DNA of 46,463 bases, from NCBI RefSeq assembly GCF_003334255.1, contig NZ_QOWU01000044.1; one strand, written 5' to 3'. Under the pieces are notes generated by a model that was given only the letters and a program-made list of their open reading frames with translations, was not told the origin of the DNA and did no database searches. Origin of the DNA: Escherichia coli (GTDB taxonomy: Bacteria; Pseudomonadota; Gammaproteobacteria; Enterobacterales; Enterobacteriaceae). The stretch's first letter is position 1. Each line of letters opens with the position of its first letter. Shown here one piece after another: positions 1 to 44,948 of the stretch. The position numbers and the translations under genes are program-made.

Positions 1-77
1 AGCTGATAGAAACAGAAGCCACTGGAGCACCTCAAAAACACCATCATACACTAAATCAGTAAGTTGGCAGCATCACC
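1..77 (-). mobile_element. IS1 insertion sequence, terminal portion only (left inverted repeat plus start of insA region); element continues beyond window start
   Basis: Reverse complement of 1..77 reads GGTGATGCTGCCAACTTACTGATTTAGTGTATGATGGTGTTTTTGAGGTGCTCCAGTGGCTTCTGTTTCTATCAGCT, which matches the IS1 terminus as I remember it. The exact junction is ambiguous over ggtgat (71..77) because it overlaps ompF sequence. Confidence 0.85.
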
Positions 78-248
78 GTTTCCGCCGTAACTGTTTACAC
101 CATTGTCTTTAGAAAAATAATGCAGACCGACAGCTTTACCGTACAGATCTACTTTGTTGCCATCTTTGTTATAGATTTCTGCAGCGTTTGCAGTACCTGC
201 TACTAACAGAGCAGGGACGATCACTGCCAGAATATTGCGCTTCATCAT
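78..248 (-). pseudogene. ompF: ompF 5' fragment (signal peptide plus about 35 mature residues of outer membrane porin F), truncated by the IS1 insertion
   Basis: ORF 51..248 translates [47 protein letters not shown]..., the OmpF N-terminus. After GGNGD the frame runs into IS1 sequence (AANLLI then stop) instead of MTYARLGF. Confidence 0.85.
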
Positions 249-397
249 TATTTATTACCCTCATGGTTTTTTTTATGACACCTGCCACTGCCGTCAATAA
301 GTTCTGTCAATAAAAATTTACGGAACTATTGATGAGAGTTTGGTGTCTTTATGTGTCTGCAGGCATCTTTCCATTCAAACTAACGTTTCGCTACCGT

Positions 398-460
398 GAA
401 AGTGCTACAAAGATAAAGATTTGGTTTCAAAAAGAAAAAATATGTAACCAAAAGTAAAAT
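398..460 (-). promoter_or_regulatory. OmpR binding sites F1-F3 of the ompF promoter
   Basis: Reverse complement contains TTTACTTTTGGTTACATATT, TTTTCTTTTTGAAACCAAAT and CTTTATCTTTGTAGCACTTT, the tandem OmpR boxes upstream of ompF as I remember them. Confidence 0.75.
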
Positions 461-810
461 TTAAGGAACTTTGTGAACACCGTCATATTTCCATAGAAGC
501 GTGATGATATTTACAGCAATTTTTATCTATTTATATGATTTCCTTATATTTAAATTAACTAAACGGAAATTTTGTTTCTGATGGAAACTTTATCGACCTG
601 GCACTAAATCCTCGTTCAGACATCCAGAATGCCAAAAAATAGTATGAAAATTGTGCTATCAGCTAAGAAAAAACTAATCCGCAATAAGAATCCAGGTTAT
701 TTTTTGTGCGTAAATGTTGCAATGTAATATTCCATAACAGGATGATCGTTATGGCGGGGTTGCAAATAGATTGCTTGACTTAACAAACAGATAACTTGAC
801 AGAAAGGATA

Positions 811-835
811 AAAAAGAGCCAGCAGGCGCTGGCTC
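811..835 (-). terminator. Rho-independent terminator downstream of asnS
   Basis: Inverted repeat gagccagc / gctggctc with a 4-nt loop; the A-run at 811..815 is a U-run on the minus-strand transcript. Confidence 0.75.
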
Positions 836-849
836 TTTGAGGAAGAAAA

Positions 850-2250
850 TCAGAAGCTGGCGTTGCGCGGAGTACGTGGGAACGGAATCACATCACGCAC
901 GTTTTGCACGCCAGTTACGTAAGCAATCAGGCGTTCAAAACCAAGACCGAAACCTGAATGCGGAACAGTACCGTAGCGACGCAGATCGCGATACCACCAG
1001 TAATCTTCTTTATTCAGGCCCATTTCCAGCATACGCTCGTCCAGAACGTCCAGACGTTCTTCACGCTGGGAGCCACCAATGATCTCACCGATGCCCGGAG
1101 CCAGAACGTCCATAGCCGCAACGGTTTTACCGTCTTCGTTGAGGCGCATATAGAACGCTTTAATATCTTTCGGATAGTTTTTAACCACTACCGGTGCTTT
1201 AAAGTGTTCTTCCGCCAGATAACGCTCATGCTCAGAAGAGAGATCGACGCCCCAGTAAACCGGGTTTTCAAACTTCCTGCCGCAGTTTTCGAGAATGGTC
1301 ACTGCGTCGGTGTAATCCACCTGCGCGAAATCGGCCTCAATGAAGCGTTCCAGACGTGAAACGGCATCTTTATCTACGCGTTCAGCGAAGAATTTCATGT
1401 CGTCTGCGCGTTCTTCGAGAACCGCTTTGAAGACATATTTCAGCATGGCTTCAGCCAGACCCGCGATATCGTTCAGGTTAGCAAACGCCACTTCCGGCTC
1501 CAGCATCCAGAACTCCGCCAGGTGACGGCTGGTGTTGGAGTTTTCAGCACGGAAAGTCGGGCCGAAGGTATAAATTTTGGATAATGCGCAAGCGTAGGTT
1601 TCGCCGTTCAACTGGCCAGATACGGTCAGGAAAGACTCTTTACCAAAGAAGTCTTTGTCGAAATCCACTTTGCCCTGATCGTTACGCGGCAGATTTTCCA
1701 GATCCAGCGTAGAAACGCGGAACATTTCGCCAGCCCCTTCGGTATCAGACGCAGTAATCAGTGGCGTTGAAACCCAGAAGAATCCCTGCTCGTTAAAGAA
1801 GCGATGCAGCGCCTGCGCCAGCGTATGGCGAACGCGCGCGACGGCACCAATCAGGTTTGTGCGCGGACGCAGGTGAGCGACTTCACGCAGATACTCAATG
1901 CTGTGGCGTTTTGCCGCCATCGGGTAAGTGTCTGGATCTTCAACCCAACCAGCAACTTCAACCTTGCTGGCCTGAATTTCAAATTGTTGCCCCTGGCCCG
2001 GCGACGCCACGACTTTACCCGTCACAATGACCGAGCAACCGGTGGTCAGACGCAGGACGTCTTCATTGTAATTGGGCAGAGAATTATTGATGACAGCCTG
2101 TACAGGATCAAAGCAGGAACCGTCATAAACGGCGAGGAAGGAGATGCCAGCTTTTGAATCTCGGCGGGTACGTACCCATCCGCGTACGGTGACTTCGCTG
2201 TCAACGGCTACGCGGCCCTGGAGTACGTCGGCTACAGGCACAACGCTCAT
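850..2250 (-). CDS. asnS: Asparaginyl-tRNA synthetase
   Basis: Translation [25 protein letters not shown]...[11 protein letters not shown] (466 aa from the internal Met). The ORF-track start at 2295 is an upstream in-frame extension. Confidence 0.96.
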
Positions 2251-2418
2251 AATATTCTCTCTGTTAATAGTCGGAAAAAATAAACACTTGTCCACCCGTA
2301 AATGGGGGGATACCTATGTTACCTGGCATCTGCAATCAGACAAGCAGAATTCGCAAATGCAGCGAAAGATTTCGGAATTAAAGGTAAAAAAAGGGAGCCG
2401 ATTAGCTCCCTGATGATA

Positions 2419-3621
2419 TTAACTGGCTTTTTTAATATGCGGAAGGTCGAACGCTTTGCGCAGCGCCCGAACAAACGCTTTATCGTGGCAGATAGTTTTG
2501 CCAGGGCTGTCAGAAAGTTTCGCCACCGGTTTACCGTTACACTCTACCAACTTAATCACAATATTCAGGGGTTTTACCTGGGGGATATCGCAGGTCAGGC
2601 GAGTCCCAATACCAAAACTTAATTGCACGCGGGAAGAGAAGTGGCGGTATAGCTCAACCGCTTTGCGTAAATCCAGATTGTCAGAGAAAACCAGCGTTTT
2701 ACTCTGTGGATCAATTCCCAGCTTTTCATAATGTGCAATGGCTTTTTCACCCCATTCAACCGGGTCGCCAGAGTCATGACGCAGGCCCTGATACCGACTA
2801 GCGAACTCGACACCGAAATCACGCAGGAAAGCATCCATAGTGATGCAGTCGGTTAATGCAATGCCAAGTTGGTCGGGATACTCTTCCAGCCAGGCAGCAA
2901 GTGCAGCTCGCTGGCTGTTGGCTAGATCCGGGCTGATTTGCTGATGTGCCTGGAACCATTCGTGTGCCTGTGTTCCCATCGGCGTGAGGGAAAGCCGACG
3001 CGCCAGATCGTAGTTGCTGGTGCCCACAAACCAGGATTCCTGTTGCAGACGCTTAACGATGGTTTCTTGTACTTCGCGAGAAAAACGGCGACGGGTGCCA
3101 AAATCCATCAGATGGAAGCGCGACATATCAAGACCGGCGGTTAACGCCGAGAAGTCGACTAATTTGCTTTCCAGCGTGTCGAGGGCTTGCGCAACGTCGG
3201 CCTGCGGTGAGCGATAGCGATGTACCATTTCACTGATAACCGCCAGCAAAGGAACTTCCCAGAGGATGACTTCACGCCACGGGCCGCTTAAACGAATATC
3301 CAGCTTGCCATTATCGTTGGACACGGTGACTTGTTCCGGGTTAAAGCGGAACTCGCGTAACCAGTTAAGATAGTCGGCCTTAAAGAAAGGCAGGGCAGAA
3401 AGCCACTGATATTCATCATCCTGCAGGCGCAGGTGCTGCATCGCCTGAACCTGTTCACGAATAGCATCGGCATAAATACCCAGCAGATCGTCACCTCGGC
3501 AACGAAACTCCGCCGCGACATGCACATCGTAATAGTGATGAAACACGGCTTGCTGCATATGCAACTTATAAGCATCTGTATCCAGCAACGAGTGCAGAAC
3601 AGGAGAAGCGAATTGTGTCAT
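2419..3621 (-). CDS. pncB: Nicotinate phosphoribosyltransferase
   Basis: Translation [31 protein letters not shown]... (400 aa); true start is the internal Met of the 416-aa track ORF. Confidence 0.95.
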
Positions 3622-3650
3622 AGGTGCGCAGTAGCGTCCTCGTACAGGAG

Positions 3651-3668
3651 CGTTTAGTACAATAAACA
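3651..3668 (-). promoter_or_regulatory. Candidate NadR operator in the pncB promoter
   Basis: Inverted repeat cGTTTA-gtacaa-TAAACA lies 30-47 bp upstream of the pncB start. This resembles the TGTTTA-N6-TAAACA NAD box as I recall it; recognised from memory only. Confidence 0.45.
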
Positions 3669-3886
3669 TCTTCAGGAACTGCTGGAGTATACCTTGTTTC
3701 GCAATTTATTGAACCCCGATCACACCATATGCCACCTTTCTGGTCGATGGCATTACGCGGTGTATGTTATAAAAATGTAGCAATAAAGGCGTTTGTACCT
3801 GAAAAGATGAAGATTCTGCATAGCGCGATTTACGCAACAGGAATAGACTGAACACCAGACTCTATAAAAGATGCTAAAGGTTATTT

Positions 3887-6499
3887 ATGACTCAACAGCC
3901 ACAAGCCAAATACCGTCACGATTATCGTGCGCCGGATTACCAGATTACTGATATTGACTTGACCTTTGACCTCGACGCGCAAAAGACGGTCGTTACCGCG
4001 GTCAGCCAGGCTGTCCGTCATGGTGCATCAGATGCTCCCCTTCGTCTCAACGGCGAAGACCTCAAACTGGTTTCTGTTCATATTAATGATGAGCCGTGGA
4101 CCGCCTGGAAAGAAGAAGAGGGCGCACTGGTTATCAGTAATTTGCCGGAGCGTTTTACGCTTAAGATCATTAATGAAATAAGCCCGGCGGCGAATACCGC
4201 GCTGGAAGGGCTTTATCAGTCAGGCGATGCGCTTTGCACCCAGTGTGAAGCCGAAGGTTTCCGCCATATTACGTATTATCTCGACCGCCCGGACGTGCTG
4301 GCGCGTTTTACCACCAAAATTATTGCCGATAAAATCAAATATCCCTTCCTGCTTTCCAATGGTAACCGCGTTGCGCAAGGCGAACTGGAAAACGGACGCC
4401 ATTGGGTACAGTGGCAGGACCCGTTCCCGAAACCGTGCTACCTGTTTGCGCTGGTGGCAGGCGACTTTGATGTACTGCGCGATACCTTTACCACGCGTTC
4501 TGGTCGCGAAGTAGCACTGGAGCTGTACGTCGATCGCGGCAACCTTGATCGCGCGCCGTGGGCGATGACCTCGCTGAAAAACTCCATGAAATGGGATGAA
4601 GAACGCTTTGGCCTGGAGTATGACCTCGACATCTATATGATCGTCGCGGTGGATTTCTTCAATATGGGCGCAATGGAGAATAAGGGGCTGAATATCTTTA
4701 ACTCCAAATATGTGCTGGCCCGCACCGACACCGCCACCGACAAAGATTACCTCGATATTGAACGCGTTATCGGCCATGAATATTTCCATAACTGGACCGG
4801 TAACCGAGTGACCTGTCGCGACTGGTTCCAGCTCAGCCTGAAAGAAGGTTTAACCGTCTTCCGCGATCAGGAGTTCAGCTCTGACCTTGGTTCCCGCGCA
4901 GTTAACCGCATCAATAATGTACGCACCATGCGCGGATTGCAGTTTGCAGAAGACGCCAGCCCGATGGCGCACCCGATCCGCCCGGATATGGTCATTGAGA
5001 TGAACAACTTCTACACCCTGACCGTTTACGAGAAGGGCGCGGAAGTGATTCGCATGATCCACACCCTGCTTGGCGAAGAAAACTTCCAGAAAGGGATGCA
5101 GCTTTATTTCGAGCGTCATGATGGTAGTGCAGCGACCTGTGACGACTTTGTGCAGGCGATGGAAGATGCGTCGAATGTCGATCTCTCCCATTTCCGCGGT
5201 TGGTACAGCCAGTCCGGTACACCGATTGTGACCGTCAAAGACGACTACAATCCGGAAACCGAGCAGTACACCCTGACCATCAGCCAGCGCACGCCAGCCA
5301 CGCCGGATCAGGCAGAAAAACAGCCGCTGCATATTCCGTTTGCCATCGAACTGTATGATAACGAAGGCAAAGTGATCCCGTTGCAGAAAGGCGGTCATCC
5401 GGTGAATTCCGTGCTGAACGTCACTCAGGCGGAACAGACCTTTGTCTTTGATAATGTCTACTTCCAGCCGGTGCCTGCGCTGCTGTGCGAATTCTCTGCG
5501 CCAGTGAAACTGGAATATAAGTGGAGCGATCAGCAACTGACCTTCCTGATGCGTCATGCGCGTAATGATTTCTCCCGTTGGGATGCGGCGCAAAGTTTGC
5601 TGGCAACCTACATCAAGCTGAACGTCGCCCGTCATCAGCAAGGGCAGCCGCTGTCTCTGCCGGTGCATGTGGCCGACGCCTTCCGCGCGGTGCTGCTCGA
5701 TGAGAAGATTGACCCGGCACTGGCGGCAGAAATTCTGACTCTGCCATCCGTCAATGAAATGGCTGAACTGTTCGATATCATCGACCCGATTGCTATTGCC
5801 GAAGTACGCGAAGCACTCACTCGTACTCTGGCGACTGAACTGGCGGATGAGCTGCTGGCTATTTACAACGCGAATTACCAGAGCGAGTACCGCGTTGAGC
5901 ATGAAGATATTGCAAAACGCACTCTGCGTAATGCCTGTCTGCGCTTCCTTGCTTTTGGTGAAACGCATCTGGCTGATGTGCTGGTGAGCAAGCAGTTCCA
6001 TGAAGCGAACAATATGACCGATGCGCTGGCGGCGCTTTCTGCGGCGGTTGCCGCACAGCTGCCATGCCGTGACGCGCTGATGCAGGAGTACGACGACAAG
6101 TGGCATCAGGATGGTCTGGTGATGGATAAATGGTTTATCCTGCAAGCCACCAGCCCGGCGGCGAATGTGCTGGAGACGGTACGTGGTCTGTTGCAGCATC
6201 GCTCATTTACCATGAGCAACCCGAACCGTATTCGTTCGTTGATTGGCGCGTTTGCGGGCAGCAACCCGGCAGCGTTCCATGCCGACGATGGCAGTGGTTA
6301 CCAGTTCCTGGTGGAAATGCTTACCGACCTCAACAGCCGTAACCCGCAGGTGGCTTCACGTCTGATTGAACCGCTGATTCGCCTGAAACGTTACGATGCC
6401 AAACGTCAGGAGAAAATGCGCGCGGCGCTGGAGCAGTTGAAAGGGCTGGAAAATCTCTCTGGCGATCTGTACGAGAAGATAACTAAAGCACTGGCTTGA
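3887..6499 (+). CDS. pepN: Aminopeptidase N
   Basis: 870-aa ORF beginning MTQQPQAKYRHDYRAPDYQITDIDLTFDL, containing the HEYFHNWTG zinc-binding motif. Confidence 0.97.
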   Translation: MTQQPQAKYRHDYRAPDYQITDIDLTFDLDAQKTVVTAVSQAVRHGASDAPLRLNGEDLKLVSVHINDEPWTAWKEEEGALVISNLPERFTLKIINEISPAANTALEGLYQSGDALCTQCEAEGFRHITYYLDRPDVLARFTTKIIADKIKYPFLLSNGNRVAQGELENGRHWVQWQDPFPKPCYLFALVAGDFDVLRDTFTTRSGREVALELYVDRGNLDRAPWAMTSLKNSMKWDEERFGLEYDLDIYMIVAVDFFNMGAMENKGLNIFNSKYVLARTDTATDKDYLDIERVIGHEYFHNWTGNRVTCRDWFQLSLKEGLTVFRDQEFSSDLGSRAVNRINNVRTMRGLQFAEDASPMAHPIRPDMVIEMNNFYTLTVYEKGAEVIRMIHTLLGEENFQKGMQLYFERHDGSAATCDDFVQAMEDASNVDLSHFRGWYSQSGTPIVTVKDDYNPETEQYTLTISQRTPATPDQAEKQPLHIPFAIELYDNEGKVIPLQKGGHPVNSVLNVTQAEQTFVFDNVYFQPVPALLCEFSAPVKLEYKWSDQQLTFLMRHARNDFSRWDAAQSLLATYIKLNVARHQQGQPLSLPVHVADAFRAVLLDEKIDPALAAEILTLPSVNEMAELFDIIDPIAIAEVREALTRTLATELADELLAIYNANYQSEYRVEHEDIAKRTLRNACLRFLAFGETHLADVLVSKQFHEANNMTDALAALSAAVAAQLPCRDALMQEYDDKWHQDGLVMDKWFILQATSPAANVLETVRGLLQHRSFTMSNPNRIRSLIGAFAGSNPAAFHADDGSGYQFLVEMLTDLNSRNPQVASRLIEPLIRLKRYDAKRQEKMRAALEQLKGLENLSGDLYEKITKALA

Positions 6500-6506
6500 T
6501 AAATAA

Positions 6507-6536
6507 CCGAATGGCGGCAATAGCGCCGCCATTCGG
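6507..6536. terminator. Perfect 12-bp stem hairpin between convergent pepN and ssuB; likely bidirectional terminator
   Basis: ccgaatggcggc-aatagc-gccgccattcgg. The flanking T-run is weak and lies mainly on the minus-strand side. Confidence 0.5.
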
Positions 6537-6541
6537 GGAAT

Positions 6542-7309
6542 TTACCCCTGTTTTCTCAGGCGAGTTTCAGATTCACCACGTTGCATCACCCGTTGCAACA
6601 CCTCCGCTTCCAGCTCCGCTAATCGCACCGACCCTAATCGACGCGGACGGGGGATATCCACTGTCAAATCCAGACCAATTTTTCCCTCTTCAATTAACAG
6701 CACCCGGTCAGCCATCGCTACCGCTTCGCTCACATCATGCGTCACCAACAGTACGGTAAAGCCGTGCTCCTGCCAAAGTGACACAATCAAATCCTGCATC
6801 TCGAGTCGCGTTAAGGCGTCCAGCGCCCCGAGCGGTTCATCAAGCAACAATAATCCCGGTCGATGAATCAACGCTCTTGCCAGCGCCACTCGCTGTTTCT
6901 GCCCGCCAGAAAGTGCGGCAGGCCATTCCCCTGCGCGATTCTCCAGTCCTACCGCAGCCAACGCTCGACGTGCGGCATCGCGCCACTGGCCTTTAAGGCC
7001 TAACCCAACGTTATCAATCACCGATTTCCACGGTAGCAGACGCGCATCCTGAAACATCATTCGCGTGTCTTCCTGAATTTCAGCCAGCGGTGTGGTGCCC
7101 GCTAACACATCGCCTGCGGTTGGCGTTTCCAGACCTGCCAGCAGGCGCAGCAGGGTACTTTTGCCACCACCGCTGCGGCCCACCACCGCCACAAACTGAC
7201 CTGCCGGAATATGTAAATCCAGTTGGTTCAGGACGATATTTTCCGCGTAATGTTTGCTTACTGCATTGAGCAACAATGGCGTGCCCTGGTTCAGACGAGC
7301 AGTATTCAT
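6542..7309 (-). CDS. ssuB: Aliphatic sulfonate ABC transporter ATP-binding protein
   Basis: 255 aa with Walker [10 protein letters not shown] and ABC signature LSGGQKQR; sits in the ssu operon context. Confidence 0.95.
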
Positions 7310-8097
7310 ACCGTGGCCTCCTTCAAATGATAAGCCGGGTTCCAGCGCAACCAGAGGCGCTCTAACAGCTGCGCGCTGACGTCAGCCAGTTTGCCGAGCA
7401 GGGCGTAAAGAATAATAGCGACTACCACCACGTCCGTTTGCAAAAACTCCCGCGCATTCATCGCCAGATAACCAATGCCTGAATTGGCAGAAATGGTTTC
7501 GGCAACAATCAGCGTCAGCCACATCAGGCCCAACGCAAAACGCACGCCGACCATAATTGAGGGCAGGGCACCAGGCAGGATCACATGGATAAACAGCGGT
7601 ATGCCGGATAATCCATAGCTACGCGCCATCTCCACCAACCCGCGATCGATATTACGGATGCCATGCCAGGTGTTGATATAAATGGGGAATAGCGTACCGA
7701 GCGCCACCAGAAAGATTTTTGCGGATTCATCAATGCCAAACCACAAAATCACCAGCGGGATCAGCGCCAGATGCGGCACGTTGCGCAACATCTGAATTGA
7801 GGTATCCAGCAGCCGTTCTCCCCAGCGAGATAGCCCGCTAATCAGTCCCAAAATCAACCCCAGCGATCCGCCAATTGAAAAGCCAATCAGCGCCCGCCAG
7901 GAGCTGATCGCCAGATGCTGCCACAGTTCGCCGCTGGCGGAGAGCGTCCAGAACGCCGTCACCACTCCTTCCGGTGAAGGCAAAATACGCGTCGACAGCC
8001 AGCCAACCGAGGAGGCCAGTTGCCACACCGCCACGATGCCCACCGGTAAAAACCAGGGGGCAACGCGCAATAACCACTTCTTCACTGGCGTTGCCAT
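7306..8097 (-). CDS. ssuC: Aliphatic sulfonate ABC transporter permease
   Basis: Hydrophobic permease; start taken as [11 protein letters not shown] (263 aa); 4-bp overlap with ssuB. Confidence 0.92.
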
Positions 8098-8107
8098 TAT
8101 TTCTTCC

Positions 8108-9253
8108 TTAGCTTTGCGCGACTTTACGGGGGATAAAATCATTCGCCACCGCTTCGCCTTGCGGATTCAGCGGCTGCGGCTGGGGAATTTCCGGGATGGC
8201 GACATCCAGAAGCGGGAACAGCAACTCGCCAACCCGATACGCTTCTTCCAGATGCGGATAGCCCGAAAGCACAAAACTGTCGATGCCAAGCGCGGCATAT
8301 TCGTTGATTCGCGCAGCGACCGTAGGACCATCGCCCACCAGCGCCGTCCCGGCACCGCCGCGCACTAAGCCAACGCCCGCCCATAAATTGGGGCTGATCT
8401 CCAGATTGTCGCGCTTGCCGTTATGTAACGCCGCCATTCGCTGTTGCCCTACGGAATCCGTCCGGGCGAATGCGGCCTGTGCTTTGGCGATAGTTTCATC
8501 ATCAAGATGCGAGATTAACCGCTCGGCGGCCTGCCACGCTTCGTCGTTAGTTTCACGAACAATCACATGCAGACGAATACCGAAACGAATTTTGCGTCCA
8601 TGCGCGGCAGCTTTCGCCCGCACTTGTTCGATTTTCTCTTTAACCAGTTCCGGCGGTTCGCCCCAGGTGAGGTAGAGATCAACCTGTTCTGCCGCCAGCT
8701 CCTGGGCGACATCTGACGATCCGCCAAAGTAAAGTGGCGGATACGGCTGTTGAATCGCCGGGAAGAGCAGTTTTGCTCCGCGCACATGAATATGTTTACC
8801 GTTGAAATCGACGGTTTCTCTCTGCAATAAACGCCGCCAGACCTGGGTAAATTCCGCCGAGGCTTCGTAGCGCTCGCTATGATCAAGGAACACTCCGTCG
8901 CCTGCCAGCTCTTGTGGATCGCTGCCTGTGACCAGGTTAAACAACGCACGTCCATTTGAGAGACGGTCAAGCGTGGCGGCCTGGCGGGCGGCAACGGTAG
9001 GTGAGGTTACGCTGGGACGCAGGGCGACAAGAAACTTCAGCCGCTGCGTCACCGGGATCATCGATGCGGCAACCAGCCACGCATCTTCGCAGGAGCGCCC
9101 CGTTGGAATTAGCACACCGGTATAGCCAAGACGATCCGCCGCTTGCGCAATTTGTTGCAGATAACCGTGATCAACCGGGCGTGAACCTTCTTCCGTTCCC
9201 AGATAATGCCCGTCACCGTGGGTCGGTAAAAACCAGAACATATTCAGACTCAT
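8108..9253 (-). CDS. ssuD: FMNH2-dependent alkanesulfonate monooxygenase
   Basis: 381 aa, [23 protein letters not shown]...; luciferase-like monooxygenase family. Confidence 0.96.
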
Positions 9254-10209
9254 AATTGTTTTCCTTCCAGTTGAGTGGGCTGCCAGATGCGCTGGCGAAT
9301 ATCGACTTTTTTCGGCACCAGACGATTTTCATAAAACAGATCTGCCGTTTGCTGCTGTAAGGCGGCAACCTCGGCGTTAACCGGTTTGATGGTGGTAGGA
9401 GGGCGATGATCTAAGTAAGAGGCAATCACCGGTGCCGGTAAGCCCATCGTTTTTGCCAGTAAAGCGATGCTTTGCTCGCGCTGGCTGCGGGTTAACGCAT
9501 CGGCCTCACTAAAGGTTGCCAGTACGCCCTGAATAAAAGCGCCGTTTTTTTCTGCATAGGGACGAGCTGCCAGATAAAACGATCCAGTTTGATTGAGATC
9601 GGTGCCGTCTTTCAGCACCCGCACGCCGCCCTGTAATAATGCAGCAGAGTAGTAGGGATCCCAGATAGCCCAGGCGTCAACGTTACCTTGCTGGAACGCG
9701 GCGCGGGCATCAGCGGGCGTCAGGTAAGTGGGTTGGATATCGGTAAACTTAAGTCCGGCCTGACGCAGTGCACGCAGTAAAAGGTTGTGTGAACTGGAAC
9801 CTTTCTGAAAGGCAACTTTGTGACCTTTAAGATCGGCTACGGTTTTGATCGGGCTGTTTTCTGCCACCAGAATCACTTCGGCTTTGGGCTTCGGTGGCTC
9901 GACGCCCACGTACACCAAATCAGCCCCGGCAGCCTGGGCAAAGATTGGCGGAATATCCCCGGTACTGCCGAGATCAATACTGCCAACGTTTAACGCTTCC
10001 AACATTTGCGGACCCGCGGGGAACTCCACCCAGGAGATTTTTGATTCCGGATAGCGTTTTTCCAGTAACTGGTGGCTTTTTGCCAGCACCATACCAATAC
10101 TGCCTTTCTGATAGCCTATACGTAACGCTTCAGGCGAGGATTCTGCAGCAACCGCAAAAGTAGAGACGCTAAGCAATCCCGCCAGCGCCAGTTTAATGAT
10201 GTTACGCAT
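9250..10209 (-). CDS. ssuA: Aliphatic sulfonate periplasmic binding protein
   Basis: Start at [22 protein letters not shown] (signal peptide), 319 aa; its start overlaps the ssuE stop by 8 nt. Confidence 0.93.
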
Positions 10210-10777
10210 GGGCATTACCTCGCAGAGACAGAAGGTCAGGAACCTGAACATCGCGGCGGTGCAATGCCTGCCAGAAAGTTTCTAGCGCGGTATCAAGACG
10301 GGTTTGCAGATTTGGCGTGAACTGGGGTCTGTGATGGTAATCAATTACTTGTGAGTCATCGGCAAACACGCCGTGCAGGATCTCCTGAGCTTTCAGTGCG
10401 CTTAAAACTGGTTTAAGGGCATAATCGACCGCCAGCAGATGGGCCACGGTACCGCCCGTCGCCAGCGGTAGCACCACTTTGCCTTGCAAAGCGCGTTCTG
10501 GCAGCAGGTCGAGCAGGGTTTTCAACGCACCGGAATAGGCGGCTTTATACACAGGCGTGGCGACAATCAGCCCATCGGCCTGTTGCAGCTGTTCGGTGAA
10601 GGTCTTGAGTGCCGGACTATCGAAACGAGCATAAAGTAGATCTTCCGGGGCGAAGTTTTGCAGATTCCAGTGATAAACCTCTACATCCAGGCCATTTAGT
10701 TTTTCCCGCGCATATTCCAGCAAGGAGCTGGAGCGAGAAGGAAAGCGAGGACTACCCGCCAGGGTGATGACACGCAT
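10202..10777 (-). CDS. ssuE: NADPH-dependent FMN reductase
   Basis: 191 aa, MRVITLAGSPRFPSRSSSLLEYAREKL...; first gene of ssuEADCB. Confidence 0.95.
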   Translation of the reverse strand: MRVITLAGSPRFPSRSSSLLEYAREKLNGLDVEVYHWNLQNFAPEDLLYARFDSPALKTFTEQLQQADGLIVATPVYKAAYSGALKTLLDLLPERALQGKVVLPLATGGTVAHLLAVDYALKPVLSALKAQEILHGVFADDSQVIDYHHRPQFTPNLQTRLDTALETFWQALHRRDVQVPDLLSLRGNAHA

Positions 10778-35031: not shown

Positions 35032-37156
35032 TCTGGCGTTGCAGACGACCAATCTCAGGCAGTAATGCAATCAATAATCCAACTTGTTGTACGACCAGAG
35101 GTTCTTTGCTGTCTGCCCGTGGTTCAAGTTGCTGCATCCGCTGTTTCAGGCTAGCTAATGCCTCATTGACGCGTTCTTCATCAGCAGGTTGATGATGTAA
35201 CGCGTCATCAACATAGCAAACTGCGTCATCAAGAAACGCCAGAATTTCAGGATTAGTTAACTGCTCCCGGTGAGCACCGAGGGCTGAGATATAGCTGGTA
35301 AACGTATGGTTAAGGCACAGCAACCGAAACGCGGCTTCGCGAATTTGCGGGGTAACGTTCGGCTCGCTGGACATATTTGATACCACCGACGCCAGCTCAG
35401 CATCACGGTTGTGTGCATCGCGGCGGGCAATACGATACGCCAGACGGTTATCACGCCCCTGATGGTATTGCTCCAGTATGGCATCGAGATACCGACAGTT
35501 GGCCTCTGTGGCGCGTTCGAGCATGCGCGGCAGATTGCGAAACTGCCAGTCAGGCCAGATGTAGCTCACTGCCGCCCACGCAATGGCACAACCAATCAGC
35601 GTATCGATTACGCGAGGTAACGCTACTTCAAAACCTTCACCCAGTAAGTTAAAACACAGTAGCACCAAAAGTGTGATGAACATCGTTGCATGAGCGTATT
35701 GCACGTTACGGAAGGCAAAAAAGAGCACGCCGGTAATAACCAGCAGCACCAGCTGCCCTTCCAGTGATGGCACAAACCACAGCACAGGAATGCCAATGGC
35801 GATACCTACCAGCGTACCAATAATCCTTAACTTCAGGCGGTGGCGCGTGGCGTTATAGTTTGGCTGGCAGACAAACAAACTTGTCAGCAAGATCCAATAC
35901 CCGTGATGCATTCCGGTTATCTGAATGATGGCGTAGCCGAAGCACAACACCAGCGACATTCTTACCGCATGACGGAAGAGGGCGGATTCCGGCGTGAAGT
36001 GACGGCTAAGACGCAGCCAGATATCACTCAACCCGTGCGGGCTGTCATCAGCGAGCTCATTTTCGTCATTATTATGGGGTAGTGCCTGGGCCTGTTCTGA
36101 TTCAATTGTTGCCAGTTGGGCATCAATGGCGCGTAAATTGTTCAGCAAAAATCCCAGTGTTTTGAGTAAATCGGCGGGTGCGCCGTTATCGCGCATCCGC
36201 TCCAGCGCAGCATCAATATGCGTAAAAGCGCGCTCAAAATGCGGATCATGTTGATAAGGCTGACGCAACAAAATACAGCGTGACAGTTGCTGGCACGCCT
36301 GGCCCTGCATCGACATCAGCCGCTGAAAACGGAACAGCACGTCGCTGTGGCGAAAATGTTCACGCAATGTTTGATACTGAATATGAGAAGAGCTGGCACG
36401 CTCGTGAATATCCTGTGCGACAAAGTAATAATGCAGCGTGCGACGCGTTCCCCGTTGACCACGATCGCCACGTAAGCGGGTCAGCAGCGAGAGTTTCGTC
36501 TGATTCAATGTCGCCATCAGCAGACCGTTGGCGAGAGCCAAATCGTACAGCGGTGCCTGGCTTTGATCTTCAATATCAGGATCAAACATGCGCGACTTGA
36601 GCTCAAGATAACGCGCCAGTTGTTCATAGCAACGCGCCAGGTTGTCCTGCAGCGGGCGGACCGGGAACAGCAGATGACCAATAAGTGTCAGGACGTTGTA
36701 CCAGACGGCACCGGCCAGCAGATACATCGGCTGCTGATACCAGTGCTCATACAGTGATGTTCCCAACATAGTGTAAATGGCGATCAGCAATGCACCGAAG
36801 GCAATTGTTGCATAGCGTTGACCCAGACCGCCGAGCAAAATGAAGCCGCTGGTAGAGAGCGTTAAGCCAATCGCAAATAGCCAGGGCCAGGGAAACAGCA
36901 ATTCTACTGAGGCCGAGGCGATAAAAAAGCAGAACAGCGTAATGATGAGGTTACGCAAACGTCCCGCCAGTCGGTCATCGAGATCGGTCAGCGCCGCTGC
37001 CACCATCCCCAGCGTTAGCGGAATCGTCAGTTTTACATCACCCAGCCACCACGGAAACGCTGTGGTTCCACAAAGCGCAATAAAAATACGCGCGTAATAC
37101 AGCCAGGCGCTGTTCCAGGTATAGCGTTTGAGCAAAGGACTTAGCATAAAGGCCAT
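34994..37156 (-). CDS. yccS: Inner membrane protein YccS (FUSC-like family)
   Basis: 720-aa polytopic membrane ORF; the true start may be the second Met (MLSPLLKRY, 37147). Its 3' end overlaps the 3' end of sxy. Confidence 0.88.
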   Translation of the reverse strand: MAFMLSPLLKRYTWNSAWLYYARIFIALCGTTAFPWWLGDVKLTIPLTLGMVAAALTDLDDRLAGRLRNLIITLFCFFIASASVELLFPWPWLFAIGLTLSTSGFILLGGLGQRYATIAFGALLIAIYTMLGTSLYEHWYQQPMYLLAGAVWYNVLTLIGHLLFPVRPLQDNLARCYEQLARYLELKSRMFDPDIEDQSQAPLYDLALANGLLMATLNQTKLSLLTRLRGDRGQRGTRRTLHYYFVAQDIHERASSSHIQYQTLREHFRHSDVLFRFQRLMSMQGQACQQLSRCILLRQPYQHDPHFERAFTHIDAALERMRDNGAPADLLKTLGFLLNNLRAIDAQLATIESEQAQALPHNNDENELADDSPHGLSDIWLRLSRHFTPESALFRHAVRMSLVLCFGYAIIQITGMHHGYWILLTSLFVCQPNYNATRHRLKLRIIGTLVGIAIGIPVLWFVPSLEGQLVLLVITGVLFFAFRNVQYAHATMFITLLVLLCFNLLGEGFEVALPRVIDTLIGCAIAWAAVSYIWPDWQFRNLPRMLERATEANCRYLDAILEQYHQGRDNRLAYRIARRDAHNRDAELASVVSNMSSEPNVTPQIREAAFRLLCLNHTFTSYISALGAHREQLTNPEILAFLDDAVCYVDDALHHQPADEERVNEALASLKQRMQQLEPRADSKEPLVVQQVGLLIALLPEIGRLQRQITQVPQETPVSA

Positions 37157-37165
37157 ATTAGTGGA

Positions 37166-37612
37166 TTATTCAAAACGACGACGTGCATTGGCTTCACGCG
37201 CAGCTTGCGCTGTTTCTACCGATACCACGCGACGACCAACCGGCCATAGTGCAATAGCGGCAATTTTAAAGTTCGCAATGCCGACAGGAATGCCAATGAT
37301 TGAAATACATTGTGCGATGCCCGTTGCAATGTGCATCAGGCATAACCACCAGCCAAAGAAAATCAGCCAGAAAATATTCAATACCGTACCGCCAGTATTC
37401 AGCAGCACATTTTTGCCAGCCGGGTTCAGTTCATCGACATGAATAGCTTCATTGCCATAAGGCACCAGAGACAGTTTAGTGATCTCCCAGCAGGATCGTG
37501 TCAGCGGTAAGGTAAAAATCAGCACAATACTGACCAGAGTCGCCAACAGCCAGCCCAGAGTGGTGGCAAATCCGCCAAGCACAAAGTTCAGAATGTTCAA
37601 AACGGTACGCAT
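37166..37612 (-). CDS. yccF: Inner membrane protein YccF
   Basis: 148 aa, hydrophobic; lies immediately upstream of yccS on the same strand. Confidence 0.92.
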   Translation of the reverse strand: MRTVLNILNFVLGGFATTLGWLLATLVSIVLIFTLPLTRSCWEITKLSLVPYGNEAIHVDELNPAGKNVLLNTGGTVLNIFWLIFFGWWLCLMHIATGIAQCISIIGIPVGIANFKIAAIALWPVGRRVVSVETAQAAREANARRRFE

Positions 37613-37734
37613 AAAACCTCGCTTTACTGTGGTTTTCAGTAATGGGCGGCAATTGTAACGTTTTTTTGGGCTGGAGCACGTTTTCTCTGACGGTTACACT
37701 GATAAGAAATAATTTCGTGTGGATCTACAGAGTC

Positions 37735-39789
37735 ATGGAACTGAAAGCGACAACGCTTGGAAAACGTCTGGCACAGCACCCTTACGATCGGGCGGTGATC
37801 CTCAATGCCGGGATTAAAGTCTCCGGCGATCGCCACGAATACCTTATTCCTTTCAATCAATTACTGGCGATTCACTGTAAGCGCGGTCTGGTATGGGGCG
37901 AGCTGGAATTTGTACTGCCGGACGAAAAAGTGGTGCGTCTGCACGGCACCGAATGGGGCGAGACGCAGCGTTTTTACCATCATCTTGATGCTCACTGGCG
38001 GCGGTGGAGTGGCGAGATGAGCGAAATTGCGTCTGGTGTTTTACGCCAGCAACTGGATTTGATTGCCACGCGCACTGGGGAAAATAAATGGCTGACGCGT
38101 GAGCAAACCTCTGGCGTGCAGCAACAAATCCGCCAGGCTTTGTCGGCGTTGCCGTTGCCGGTTAACCGACTGGAAGAATTCGATAACTGCCGTGAGGCGT
38201 GGCGTAAATGTCAGGCCTGGTTGAAAGATATTGAAAGCGCTCGGTTGCAGCATAACCAGGCGTATACCGAAGCCATGCTTACCGAGTATGCGGATTTTTT
38301 CCGCCAGGTCGAGTCTTCACCGCTGAATCCGGCGCAGGCCCGGGCAGTCGTTAATGGCGAGCATTCTCTGTTAGTGCTGGCAGGTGCAGGAAGCGGAAAA
38401 ACGTCGGTGCTGGTGGCCCGTGCAGGCTGGTTGCTGGCGCGTGGTGAAGCGTCCCCTGAGCAAATTTTATTGCTGGCGTTTGGTCGCAAAGCCGCTGAAG
38501 AGATGGACGAGCGGATTCGCGAACGGCTACATACCGAAGACATTACCGCACGCACGTTTCATGCGCTGGCGCTGCATATTATTCAGCAGGGCAGCAAAAA
38601 AGTTCCGATAGTCAGCAAACTGGAAAATGATACCGCTGCCCGTCATGAACTCTTTATTGCTGAGTGGCGCAAGCAATGCAGCGAAAAGAAAGCGCAGGCG
38701 AAGGGCTGGCGGCAATGGCTGACGGAAGAAATGCAGTGGTCAGTGCCAGAAGGTAACTTCTGGGATGATGAAAAATTACAGCGTCGCCTTGCCTCTCGCC
38801 TCGATCGCTGGGTAAGTCTGATGCGGATGCACGGTGGTGCACAGGCAGAAATGATTGCCAGTGCACCCGAAGAGATTCGCGATCTGTTCAGTAAACGTAT
38901 CAAGTTGATGGCCCCGTTATTAAAAGCCTGGAAAGGTGCGCTGAAGGCAGAAAACGCTGTCGATTTTTCGGGCCTTATTCATCAGGCGATTGTGATTCTG
39001 GAGAAAGGTCGCTTTATCAGCCCGTGGAAGCATATTCTGGTTGATGAATTTCAGGATATCTCGCCGCAGCGGGCAGCGTTGTTAGCGGCATTACGCAAGC
39101 AAAACAGTCAGACGACGTTGTTCGCTGTTGGTGATGACTGGCAGGCGATTTACCGATTCAGCGGTGCGCAAATGTCGCTCACCACCGCTTTCCATGAAAA
39201 CTTTGGTGAAGGCGAACGCTGTGATTTAGACACGACTTACCGTTTTAACAGTCGTATCGGTGAGGTGGCAAACCGGTTTATTCAGCAGAACCCAGGCCAG
39301 CTGAAAAAGCCGCTAAACAGCTTAACCAATGGAGACAAAAAAGCCGTCACGTTATTGGATGAGAGTCAACTTGACGCTTTGCTGGATAAGCTCTCTGGTT
39401 ATGCCAAACCGGAAGAGCGCATTCTGATCCTGGCGCGTTACCATCACATGAGGCCTGCCAGCCTGGAAAAAGCGGCAACACGCTGGCCGAAGTTGCAAAT
39501 CGACTTTATGACCATTCATGCCAGCAAAGGGCAACAGGCGGATTACGTCATCATCGTTGGCTTGCAGGAGGGAAGTGATGGTTTTCCGGCTGCGGCGCGG
39601 GAGTCGATTATGGAAGAGGCGCTACTGCCACCGGTTGAGGATTTCCCGGACGCTGAAGAACGGCGGTTAATGTACGTGGCGCTGACCCGGGCACGCCATC
39701 GGGTATGGGCACTGTTTAACAAAGAGAATCCCTCTCCCTTTGTGGAAATACTGAAAAATCTGGATGTGCCGGTGGCGAGAAAACCGTAA
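37735..39789 (+). CDS. helD: DNA helicase IV
   Basis: Start at MELKATTLGKRLAQHPYDRAV (684 aa); UvrD-like motifs (AGAGSGKTS Walker A, VDEFQD). Confidence 0.95.
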   Translation: MELKATTLGKRLAQHPYDRAVILNAGIKVSGDRHEYLIPFNQLLAIHCKRGLVWGELEFVLPDEKVVRLHGTEWGETQRFYHHLDAHWRRWSGEMSEIASGVLRQQLDLIATRTGENKWLTREQTSGVQQQIRQALSALPLPVNRLEEFDNCREAWRKCQAWLKDIESARLQHNQAYTEAMLTEYADFFRQVESSPLNPAQARAVVNGEHSLLVLAGAGSGKTSVLVARAGWLLARGEASPEQILLLAFGRKAAEEMDERIRERLHTEDITARTFHALALHIIQQGSKKVPIVSKLENDTAARHELFIAEWRKQCSEKKAQAKGWRQWLTEEMQWSVPEGNFWDDEKLQRRLASRLDRWVSLMRMHGGAQAEMIASAPEEIRDLFSKRIKLMAPLLKAWKGALKAENAVDFSGLIHQAIVILEKGRFISPWKHILVDEFQDISPQRAALLAALRKQNSQTTLFAVGDDWQAIYRFSGAQMSLTTAFHENFGEGERCDLDTTYRFNSRIGEVANRFIQQNPGQLKKPLNSLTNGDKKAVTLLDESQLDALLDKLSGYAKPEERILILARYHHMRPASLEKAATRWPKLQIDFMTIHASKGQQADYVIIVGLQEGSDGFPAAARESIMEEALLPPVEDFPDAEERRLMYVALTRARHRVWALFNKENPSPFVEILKNLDVPVARKP

Positions 39790-39793
39790 GAAA

Positions 39794-39813
39794 CAGGTGG
39801 CGTTTGCCACCTG
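39794..39813. terminator. Hairpin between convergent helD and mgsA
   Basis: caggtggc-gttt-gccacctg; flanking U-runs are weak. Confidence 0.45.
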
Positions 39814-39820
39814 TGCAATA

Positions 39821-40279
39821 TTACTTCAGACGGTCCGCGAGATAACGCTGATAATCGGGGATCAGAATATCGACCGCGTCGTTGAAATGCGGCGACTGGA
39901 TTATGAAGTCTGCCGTTGCCACGTTGGTGGCGACCGGAATGTTCCATACCGTCGCCAGACGCAGCAAGGCTTTCACGTCAGGATCGTGCGGCACGGCATT
40001 TAGTGGATCCCAGAAGAAAATCAATACATCAATTTTCCCTTCTGAGATCAATGCGCCAACCTGCTGGTCACCCCCCATTGGGCCACTCAACATCGCGTTG
40101 ACGTTCATGCCGGTCGCGCGGGAAATTAAGTTACCGGTAGTGCCTGTTGCATACAGTACGTGTTGTTCCAGTAACGGTTGATGCCGTTCCACCCAGCTCA
40201 TCAGCATTTGTTTGCAGTGATCGTGTGCCACCAGCGCAATATGTTTCCGCGCAGGTAAAGTGCGAGTCGTCAGTTCCAT
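39821..40279 (-). CDS. mgsA: Methylglyoxal synthase
   Basis: Start at [24 protein letters not shown] (152 aa). Confidence 0.96.
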
Positions 40280-40374
40280 AATGTACATCCGTAGTTAACT
40301 TTCCTACAGATTACTGTAAGCACTTATCGCTGCAAGATAAAGACCGAAAAAGCCTGCGCACAGGCACAAAAATC

Positions 40375-41037
40375 TCAGGAAGATGGTTGTTTTTCCGCCC
40401 ACTGCAGGAAAGTATTTCGCGTTTGTGGGTCAGCCAGTTTAAACCAATACTTCAGCCGTTGTTCTGTGAGCACCTGAGACTGCGGTGGAATAGCATCCAG
40501 CTCGGAAACACCCGAAAGCAGCGTACTGTCATCTGCCATCATCGTGGCAAATTGCGGTAGTGAAGCGCGTTTCGCGGATTTGTTATAGCGTTCAACCTCG
40601 ACCTCATAATCAATCGTTTTTGCCGTTGAGGTAATGGCGAGAATATCCAGCTTTACCGGAATCGGCGTCGCATCGCCATCCAACAATTCAAGGCGCGGCG
40701 CGGCATCAAAATGGTTAGCTTCCCGCTCATTCTCCAGGCGAGGCAGGCGAAAATTGACCTGGTTGATGAGCTGGGTATTAAAACTGACCACCAGCGGTGG
40801 GGAGATATACAGCCGTTCTTCACTATTGGAAAGATGAATCGTCTTCTCAACGCGAAACACTAACTGATGCGGTCCATTATCCAGTTCAATGCTGTCCGCA
40901 CCGCGCAGCAGAGAGCTGGAAACCTTCTTGCCGTCGAGTACCAGAAGATCGACATCGGTTGAAAGCCGCAGCGTGGTGGCAAAAACGGATACCGGCAAAC
41001 ATAATGCAATCAAGGTGGTCACGATGCCGGTTTTCAT
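40375..41037 (-). CDS. yccT: Periplasmic UPF0319 protein YccT
   Basis: 220 aa with signal peptide [20 protein letters not shown]. Confidence 0.92.
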
Positions 41038-41209
41038 AGGTAGCTCCTGTCAAAAGACCGCCCGAATAATAATGTGTCAAAATTTTTCTTTAATCATACT
41101 TACTAACATATAGACATATTTCCCGCTTTTGCTCTCATTCATTCGTATTAGCTGCATGGTTGGCATGTCGGCTTTGTCGTACACTTTGTTAAACAGTCTG
41201 GAGGAAATA

Positions 41210-41623
41210 ATGAAAGAAACCGATATTGCAGGCATTTTAACGTCCACTCACACCATTGCGCTGGTGGGGGCAAGCGACAAACCCGATCGTCCCAGCTATC
41301 GCGTGATGAAATATCTACTCGACCAGGGGTATCACGTCATTCCGGTTTCGCCAAAAGTTGCCGGCAAAACGCTGCTGGGCCAGAAGGGGTATGGCACGCT
41401 GGCAGACGTTCCGGAAAAAGTCGATATGGTCGATGTTTTCCGTAATTCAGAAGCGGCGTGGGGCGTGGCACAGGAAGCTATTGCCATTGGCGCGAAAACC
41501 CTCTGGATGCAACTGGGGGTGATTAATGAGCAAGCGGCAGTACTGGCACGGGATGCCGGGTTAAATGTGGTGATGGATCGCTGCCCGGCTATTGAGATCC
41601 CTCGCCTGGGCCTGGCCAAATAA
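41210..41623 (+). CDS. yccU: CoA-binding domain protein YccU
   Basis: Start at [30 protein letters not shown] (137 aa) behind a GGAGGA ribosome-binding site. Confidence 0.93.
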
Positions 41624-41625
41624 AA

Positions 41626-41657
41626 AATCCCCGGAAGGCAAAAACCTTCCGGGGATT
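41626..41657. terminator. Bidirectional terminator between yccU and hspQ
   Basis: aatccccggaagg-caaaaa-ccttccggggatt, a 13-bp stem flanked by an A-run and T-rich sequence. Confidence 0.8.
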
Positions 41658-41667
41658 TGTTCAGGGA

Positions 41668-42042
<375 letters not shown>

Positions 42043-43233
42043 TTACATGACGCGACAGGCAAACCCTTTCAGATATAGCCCTTCCGGATAGGTAGCGATC
42101 ACCGGATGATCGGCTGCCTGACGGAACTGCTCTATAAATTGTACATCACGACCGGCATCAATTGCGGCATCCGCGATGATTTTCTGAAATAAATCGCTGG
42201 TCATCAGACCGGAACAGGAGAAAGTCAGGAGAATACCGCCTTCATTCAGCAGCTGAATCGCCAGCATGTTGATGTCTTTATAACCACGACACGCGCCCAT
42301 CAACTGGCTTTTATTCTCAACAAACTTCGGCGGGTCCATCACGATAACGTCAAATTTTTCACCGCGATCGCGATAAGTACGCAGCAATTTAAAGACATCA
42401 TCACGGACAAACTCAGCCTTGCTCAGATCCAGTTTGTTCAGCTCAACGTTCTGCCGTGCAATATCCAGCGCTTCCTGGGAGGTATCAACGCTGACAACCT
42501 GGCTGCAACCGCCCATCAGTGCCGATACGGCGAAACCACCGGTATAGGAGAAACAGTTCAGCACACGTTTATTTTCAACGTAGCGGCGGGTAGCCAGGCG
42601 GCTATCACGCTGGTCCAGGTAGTAGCCCGTTTTGTGTCCGTGCTGAATATCCACCAGCAGTTTCATTCCGTGTTCTTCAATCGGCAGCAGGGCAGGTGGC
42701 AACTCGCCGGTGACGGGGCCCTGGGTCAGCTCCATTCCTTCTTTTTTACGTACCGCGACGTCGCTGCGATCGTAAATCGAACATTCCGGGTACAGCGTTT
42801 GCAGGGCACTAATTAATGCCGCGCGCTGATATTCTGCCCCAGCACTCAGCAGTTGCAGCACCAGAAAATTACCGAAACGATCGATAGTAATACCCGGCAG
42901 GCCATCAGATTCTCCGGCGATTAAACGATAGCTGTCGAGGCCATCTTTTTGCGCCAGCCAGTCACGCCATTTTTGTGCTTGTTGCAAACGGCGGGAAAAA
43001 AAAGCAATGTCGATAGACTCAGACGGGTCAAACGTCCAGACGCGCGCCCGGATTTGCGAAGCTGGCGAATAAGCGCCGCGTGCTAACCATTTTCCCTGAT
43101 GATCAACAATATCGATGGTTTCACCGAGGCTGGCTTTACCTTCCATGCGGGCAACGGCCCCGGAAAAGACCCACGGATGGCGACGAAGTAATGATTTTTC
43201 GCGCCCTTTGGCTAACACTAAACGTACACTCAT
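42043..43233 (-). CDS. rlmI: 23S rRNA m5C1962 methyltransferase RlmI
   Basis: 396 aa, [27 protein letters not shown]...; PUA plus methyltransferase domains. Confidence 0.96.
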
Positions 43234-43327
43234 AATTTACTTTTCTGTCGATGCAAAGAAATGGGCGTCATTGTCCGGAGTTTTCCATGGATTTGCAACG
43301 CGTCCATTAAGGATAAGGAGAGCAGCA

Positions 43328-43606
43328 ATGTCGAAAGTCTGCATAATTGCCTGGGTTTACGGGCGAGTTCAGGGCGTAGGATTTCGCTACACCACACAGT
43401 ACGAAGCGAAAAGACTGGGTTTAACCGGGTACGCCAAAAATCTTGACGATGGCAGCGTGGAAGTGGTTGCTTGCGGTGAAGAAGGGCAGGTGGAAAAATT
43501 AATGCAGTGGTTAAAGAGTGGCGGCCCGCGTTCTGCGCGTGTAGAACGGGTGCTCAGCGAGCCGCATCATCCCTCGGGGGAATTAACCGATTTTCGTATC
43601 CGTTAA
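43328..43606 (+). CDS. yccX: Acylphosphatase
   Basis: Start at [38 protein letters not shown] (92 aa) behind AAGGAGAG; the 163-aa track ORF is an upstream extension. Confidence 0.93.
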
Positions 43607-43932
43607 ATACATTTTACCGGTTTTGGCAGGCCAGCAATTTTGGTGGCTTGCTTAGCCGGACCTTTCGGAAACAGTCGGTATAAATAGCGGCTGTTACCTT
43701 TTTCTTCGCCAAATTTATTCGCCATCGCTTTTACCAGCATACGAATCGCCGGAGAAGTATTGAATTCCAGATAGAAATCACGCACAAAACGCACCACTTC
43801 CCAGTGTTCCGGTGACAGCGAAATCCCTTCGTTCTCTGCAATCACCACAGCCAGCGGCTCACTCCACTGGCTGCTTTCTTTGAGATAGCCTTCGGTATCC
43901 GTTTCTATCTCTTTACCTTCGAAGATCAGCAT
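43603..43932 (-). CDS. tusE: Sulfurtransferase TusE
   Basis: Start at [30 protein letters not shown] (109 aa). Confidence 0.94.
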
Positions 43933-44022
43933 AATTATTACTACCTTAATCAGACTGGCGGCAGTGTAACAAAAAACAAAGCCCCGCATAAAGCGAGGCT
44001 ATGAAAGTGTTAGCGGGTGAGA

Positions 44023-44682
44023 TTAATCGCGGCTAGCGAAGCCCAGAATGCTCAGCAGGCTGACGAAGATGTTGTACAGCGAAACATACAGGCTAACCGT
44101 GGCACGAATATAGTTCGTCTCACCGCCATGAATGATGTTGCTGGTTTCAAACAAGATAGCGCCAGAGGAGATCAGAATGAAGACCGCGCTGATCGCCAGA
44201 TGCAGAGCAGGCAGCTGCAGGAAGATATTCGCAACCATACCAATCAGCACCACCACAATACCCGCCATCAGCATACCGCCGAGGAACGACATATCTTTGC
44301 GGGTGGTCAGCACATATGCAGAGCAGCAGAAGAACACTAACGCCGTTCCGCCCAGTGCCATAGCGATTACGTCACCCATTCCGGCAGACAGATAGGTGTT
44401 CAGAATAGGTCCGAGGATATAACCCAGAAAACCGGTAAAGGCGAATGCGGAGATAATCCCGGTCGGCTTATTCGCCGTTTTATAGGTCAGGAACATCAAA
44501 CCATACATACCCACCAGCGTCAGAATCAGACCCGGAGATGGCAGCATCAGCACCGTACTGGCAGTTGCGGTAATCGCCGAAAAGGCCAGCGTCAGGCTCA
44601 GCAGAAAATAGGTATTACGCAGCACCTTATGGGTGCTAAGCAGTGATGTACGGTCATGTGAAGAACTAACAATACGATCCAT
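44023..44682 (-). CDS. yccA: FtsH modulator YccA (Bax inhibitor-1 family membrane protein)
   Basis: 219 aa, [30 protein letters not shown]...; seven hydrophobic segments. Confidence 0.96.
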
Positions 44683-44844
44683 TGAGTCACTCTCTATGAC
44701 AGATGTAATTAATTAAGCAGCATAATGATAATGCGTAAGGGCACCCAGAAGTTTTACCCATCTTTACGCATTTGATCTGGAACAGGTTTAACAGCGGATT
44801 ATCAGGTCATTAAGCAAATATAACGCCCTGAGAATTTCGACAGG

Positions 44845-44880
44845 CAAAAGAAAAAGGGGTTAGCATTTAGCTAACCCCTT
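44845..44880 (-). terminator. Rho-independent terminator downstream of the serT remnant
   Basis: aaggggttagc-attta-gctaacccctt hairpin, followed on the minus strand by TTTTCTTTT. Confidence 0.75.
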
Positions 44881-44888
44881 ATCTTATT

Positions 44889-44948
44889 TGGCGGAAGCGC
44901 AGAGATTCGAACTCTGGAACCCTTTCGGGTCGCCGGTTTTCAAGACCG
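44889..44948 (-). tRNA. serT: tRNA-Ser(UGA) 3'-terminal 60-nt fragment; not a complete tRNA (5' acceptor, D-arm and half the anticodon stem are missing); prophage attachment core remnant
   Basis: Reverse complement CGGTCTTGAAAACCGGCGACCCGAAAGGGTTCCAGAGTTCGAATCTCTGCGCTTCCGCCA matches the 3' part of serT. Upstream sequence (44949 onward) has no segment able to pair with the acceptor 3' strand. Confidence 0.85.

Follow-up and report, generated by a model that had tools for sequence, protein, structure and literature searches.

The 46,463-nucleotide stretch of Escherichia coli chromosome analysed here (the window) begins 77 nt inside an IS1 element that interrupts the porin gene ompF. We consider it very probable that this arrangement arose by a simple and recent transposition of IS1 into ompF after nucleotide 171 of the coding sequence (CDS), in the same orientation as the gene, giving a loss-of-function allele.

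Layout of the ompF locus

The order of genes in the window (asnS, then pncB, pepN and the ssu genes) is the usual one for E. coli. Since the ompF start codon lies at 248 and asnS ends at 850, both on the minus strand according to the sequence and the list of open reading frames (ORFs), positions 249..849 are exactly the asnS-ompF intergenic region. The upstream neighbour asnS (asparagine-tRNA ligase; 850..2250, minus) is intact, as judged from the ORF list and genome comparison, and its intrinsic terminator, an 11-bp stem followed by a T run, was placed at 838..813 (minus) by the terminator search. Translation of ompF begins MMKRNILAV at 248 (minus), and the first 171 nt of the gene (57 codons; 78..248, minus), comprising the signal peptide and the beginning of the mature porin, equal those of the intact ompF of E. 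coli G1/2.

ompF ends at 78, and the bases 77..1 are the left end of IS1, identical at 77 of 77 positions to the 768-bp IS1 of MB51 (IS1A-type). Exact string matches on the minus strand located the IRL, GGTGATGCTGCCAACTTACTGAT, at 77..55 and the GTG start of insA at 22..20, with the first seven insA codons running to the window edge, whilst the consensus promoter scan called a promoter-like site within the IRL (70..43, minus). Across the junction the ORF list holds a 65-aa fusion (51..248, minus), made up of the OmpF N-terminus and a short IS1-encoded tail, ending in a TAG at 53..51 that precedes the insA start by 28 nt; insA is preceded by its own GAGG ribosome-binding site. A string search of the whole window revealed no further IS1 or ompF sequence elsewhere in it.

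The two IS1 junctions

In the window the left junction passes from ...TTACGGCGGAAAC directly into GGTGATGC. Using the exact 65-aa fusion product we retrieved contig CBCRYS010000040.1 (GCA_965136505.1), hereafter the left contig, which has the identical left junction and 120 IS1 bases, all identical to the MB51 IS1. A second contig of the same assembly, CBCRYS010000060.1, was retrieved via the predicted ORF of the ompF 3' part and carries, in order, the IS1 right end, the ompF 3' part, aspC and gloC. Its junction reads ...GGAGTCATTACC, then GGCGGAAAC, then GGCGACAAA, and the IRR, ...AAGTTGGAGTCATTACC, at 111..127 of this contig is likewise identical to that of the 768-bp IS1 of MB51. The 9-bp sequence GGCGGAAAC (ompF sense) is thus present at both ends of IS1, at 86..78 of the window (minus) and at 128..136 of CBCRYS010000060.1, as a perfect target duplication.

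The ompF 3' part runs for 927 nt to the stop codon, that is the duplicated 9 bp plus 918 nt past the insertion point, and is 100% identical to that of G1/2 and JP538. Over ~47.8 kb of the locus, an aspC SNP at position 1578 of CBCRYS010000060.1 is the only difference from G1/2. The protein look-up gave no record for an alternative 227-aa start for the 3' ORF, nor for the corresponding fusion protein with the K-12-type allele of ompF. The visible parts of the element, on two separate contigs, are 120 nt at its left end and 127 nt at its right end, its middle being unassembled. An active element has a complete insA-insB' with the A6C frameshift site, of which the first 33 insA codons (left contig) and the last 36 InsB residues (right contig, PF03400) are assembled here. 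Because the rest of ompF was found directly after the IS1 right end on another contig, the gene is interrupted and not, as the preliminary description of this DNA had it, truncated.

Both the window and the left contig end within IS1, hence linkage across the element was never directly observed, and recombination between IS1 copies (inversion, deletion or translocation), after or instead of the insertion, could have left the two halves of ompF no longer adjacent. Such a rearrangement is, however, very unlikely given that both junctions occur in one assembly (GCA_965136505.1) with a perfect 9-bp direct duplication, and that the flanks fit the normal gloC-aspC-ompF-asnS-pncB order, for which an unrearranged insertion is the simplest reading. 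By such an insertion, an element of the IS1A type, to judge from both visible ends, would have entered ompF after nt 171 and made the usual 9-bp duplication. With 9-bp repeats on either side of IS1 and no other damage, the allele is potentially reversible, since precise excision could in principle restore ompF. It would be an allele of the kind that represents porin loss repeatedly selected by beta-lactams, carbapenems, phage or colicin; that antibiotics selected this particular insertion is an assumption from the literature and not from a phenotype of the strain.

The ompF promoter region and the age of the insertion

Between positions 130 and 497 the window has no differences from K-12 MG1655, a span that includes the 5' leader, the -10 and -35 regions and the OmpR sites F1-F3, to approximately -140. 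The transcription start, which we take from K-12 to lie at ~358, would give an untranslated leader of ~110 nt (249..358, minus; base-identical to K-12) that includes the region targeted by MicF and the ribosome-binding site. The core promoter (365..393, minus), also identical to K-12, has a putative -10 hexamer AAAGAT at 370..365 and a weak -35-like hexamer TAGCGA at 393..388. Directly upstream of the -35 region, as in a K-12-type OmpR-regulated promoter, sit the tandem OmpR sites F1 (458..439), F2 (438..419) and F3 (418..398), of 20 bp each (398..458 in all, minus), every one an exact match to K-12; the site model for the ompF promoter was taken from PMC3050692. The consensus promoter scan did not call the real ompF promoter, as is expected because this promoter is activator-dependent, and the three sites that it did find, against 2.3 expected, are at chance level.

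The distal site F4, reportedly defined by Huang et al. in 1994, lies at 738..719 (minus; GTTATGGAATATTACATTGC), at the expected spacing of 260 bp upstream of F1. This placement follows the published position, ~260 bp upstream of F1 (PMC3050692). At position 734 the window has GTTATG where K-12 and nearly all E. coli have GTTACG, a C-to-T change that falls in the GTTAC core of the OmpR motif GTTACAT (PMC5438342). A 46-mer with the variant base matched 8 of 5,426 complete E. coli genomes, and the five matches listed are all among the eight genomes of the window's lineage in which ompF is intact. Since relatives with intact ompF have the same variant, it predates the IS1 insertion, and on this sequence comparison the change is a polymorphism of the lineage, not decay after the insertion. 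It might weaken the high-osmolarity repression of ompF in this lineage.

Within 249..849 there are 21 differences from K-12 MG1655, every one at or beyond position 498, where by comparison of the alleles they are ordinary allelic variation. All 601 bp of this region are 100% identical to JP538 and one base off strain HS, both of which have an intact ompF, and 76..44948 of the window shows 100% identity to G1/2, also a strain with intact ompF. When a 1,689-bp query comprising the promoter and intact ompF was used, it matched at 100% and in a single piece in eight complete genomes, those with uninterrupted ompF being G1/2, G6/7, G8, WP7-S17-ESBL-04, JP538, B-1109, MB06232 and cM8a. The preliminary description, which had placed intact OmpR boxes at 398..460 and had proposed a base-by-base comparison of 249..849, is borne out for the proximal promoter: F1-F3 match K-12 exactly and neither these boxes nor the -10 and -35 hexamers carry a substitution or deletion. 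Its wider statement that the upstream region is unaltered applies to the proximal promoter and fails at the distal F4 site, with its rare substitution older than the insertion.

These comparisons also bear on whether ompF here is an old pseudogene that is slowly decaying, its promoter having been conserved by chance or via some other function. The deviation of F4 from K-12 at a core motif position would fit such a history, but the variant is common to the eight relatives with intact ompF, the locus differs from G1/2 by one SNP over ~47.8 kb, and the promoter, the 171-nt 5' part and the 927-nt 3' part show no extra substitution, frameshift or deletion against G1/2 and JP538, so that slow decay is scarcely credible. 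The suggestion of a recent insertion over long-term decay, made earlier from the window's sequence, is therefore upheld, as the promoter and both ompF halves equal the intact alleles of the closest sequenced relatives and the 9-bp duplication is perfect. The insertion appears young on the scale of strain divergence, where 'recent' is a relative term, with ~1.7 kb being informative and any absolute dating loose.

Recurrence at nt 171 and other lesions in ompF

IS1 at the exact site, after CDS nt 171 with target GGCGGAAAC, was found in none of the 5,426 complete genomes searched. The identical nt-171 junction was present on the seven draft contigs in public assemblies on which the 65-aa fusion product was called, one of them in a ~97%-identical background. 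Although contigs from short reads typically end at IS copies, and the window begins 77 nt inside IS1, we give almost no credence to a contig end wrongly extended into this repeat from a really intact ompF, given the identical junction on the seven contigs from several samples and, in GCA_965136505.1, a matching junction with a target duplication that an artefact would not create.

A Logan contig, SRR36319702, has the same ompF::IS1 junction, in the same orientation, at 10171/10172. Over 10.2 kb its flank has 294 differences from the window (97.1% identity), of which 18 fall in the promoter region, including one in F1, whilst its promoter and 5' ompF are 100% identical to intact alleles elsewhere, for example that of strain 144. 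Judged solely from the divergence of the flanks, the insertion in SRR36319702 thus probably arose independently of that in the window while sharing its nucleotide position and orientation; if so, it would follow that nt 171 is a local hotspot for IS1. Alternatively, the allele may have been transferred by recombination with breakpoints close to IS1.

Other lesions in ompF were also encountered. In MB51, IS1 lies in the ompF CDS 21 nt upstream of the window's site, and in isolateA a 768-bp IS1 lies in the CDS after nt 498, both copies being oriented as in the window and flanked by 9-bp duplications; strain 81 has ISKox3 within ompF. CUVET16-394 carries IS1 in the ompF promoter (-10/start site; equivalent to 353..363 of the window) in the same orientation, and CAVP773 carries it upstream of the promoter, ~330 bp before the ATG, in the opposite orientation, the CDS being annotated as intact in both. 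The strain-144-type ompF is split in many assemblies into an N-terminal ORF of 67, 81, 82, 87, 109 or 119 aa and a 232-aa C-terminal ORF, a pattern that indicates, from the predicted ORFs, many independent inactivations by frameshift or nonsense mutation.

Possible transcription from the ompF promoter into insA

IS1 and ompF are co-directional: both in the window and in the left contig insA starts on the strand of ompF, and the right contig has the InsB C-terminus on that strand too. The preliminary description had envisaged antisense transcripts of the insA region; because IS1 shares the orientation of ompF, read-through RNA would instead be sense to insA. The terminator search found no intrinsic terminator-like site between the start site (~358) and IS1. 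As no terminator intervenes and ribosomes translating the fusion ORF would stay on the RNA almost as far as insA, transcription from the ompF promoter into IS1 and insA is plausible.

At low osmolarity the OmpR-dependent promoter, being unchanged, should remain active, and the RNA made from it would comprise the ompF leader and the 65-codon OmpF'-IS1 ORF, followed by sense insA. The classical polarity of IS1 is due to Rho-dependent termination within the element, and here such termination would probably occur in the poorly translated insB region. The likely result would be more InsA, and rarely InsAB', from this copy, together with transcription across the IRL.

InsA and IHF bind the ends of IS1, and the element is strongly polar. 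The promoter could on these grounds be intact and still be without effect on IS1, with transcripts stopping near the IS1 end at an InsA/IHF roadblock at the IRL or through Rho. We regard this as the less likely outcome, albeit one that retains some weight, since the fusion ORF reaches to 28 nt before insA and, with no intrinsic terminator, leaves little room for Rho loading, and since chromosomal IS1 copies are measurably affected by upstream transcription (PMC12428005). In that work (Smith et al., 2025; PMC12428005), chromosomal IS1 copies transposed less when upstream host transcription was blocked, whereas a study from 1983 cited there (Machida et al.; Cell 34:135) states in its title that read-through represses cointegration. 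The published effects of read-through on IS1 are thus opposite in sign, with cointegration repressed and transposition stimulated.

The proposals of a hotspot and of read-through can be joined, such that nt 171 would be a true IS1 hotspot, hit in at least two lineages in the same orientation, and the expression of insA and insAB' from this copy, lying co-directionally behind one of the strongest regulated promoters of the cell, would depend on osmolarity and OmpR. We consider this combination rather improbable. If it were true, osmolarity and OmpR would also govern either the activity of IS1 in cis or repression by InsA in trans.

Other features of the window

Identity to G1/2 ends at 44948, inside the tRNA-Ser gene serT, of which the 3' 60 nt remain (44889..44948, minus); no intact tRNA was found by ARAGORN. 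Beyond it lie genes for a tyrosine integrase (45090..46109, minus) and a DUF4224 protein (46087..46329, minus) and, at the window end, the beginning of an exonuclease gene. NCBIfam gave only a XerC match, below threshold, for the integrase. The segment 44889..46463 thus belongs to a lambdoid prophage inserted at serT, of which it forms the end, and this prophage end is common in E. coli, with 739 complete genomes carrying at least 80% of its 1.5 kb. An Rfam scan of the whole window gave nothing in 1..900 and only the PyrD leader (RF02373; 17964..18037, plus; 97.9 bits), an expected and ordinary feature upstream of pyrD.

Comparison with known systems

Loss of ompF through IS1 is a well-known, recurrent and ordinary route, and the kind of event described here is already known. 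The allele is a porin-loss allele in a commensal-type E. coli lineage, which would mean reduced entry of beta-lactams and carbapenems; it adds another case to an adaptive route that is already well documented, and raises no new question. The case is mildly interesting only for the identical junction recurring in a divergent background and for the putative coupling of the ompF promoter to insA.

ompF has been described as a hotspot of mobile-element insertion tied to meropenem resistance (Durrant et al., bioRxiv 10.1101/527788), and for carbapenem-resistant, non-carbapenemase E. coli IS1 has been reported in the porin genes ompC/ompF, inserted a few tens of bases from the gene start (PMC9601100). 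The IS-inactivated ompF genes of such clinical and environmental E. coli (10.1101/527788; PMC9601100) share with the window the gene, the element family, the loss of the porin and the untouched flanks, and differ from it in the exact site, here nt 171. With CUVET16-394 and CAVP773 the window shares the locus and the element, both types of insertion silencing or rewiring ompF, but theirs part the promoter or upstream sites from an intact CDS, whilst here the promoter is whole and the CDS is split. IS-disrupted ompK35 and ompK36 of Klebsiella pneumoniae (PMC5532282) are alike in being a reversible, IS-mediated porin loss under antibiotic pressure, although in another species and another gene. 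For the putative read-through, the closest likeness is to IS1E in yrhA (PMC12428005): in both cases the element is co-directional within a transcribed host gene, with no terminator between, so that transcription can enter insA. In contrast to that system, the incoming promoter here is the strong OmpR-regulated promoter of ompF.
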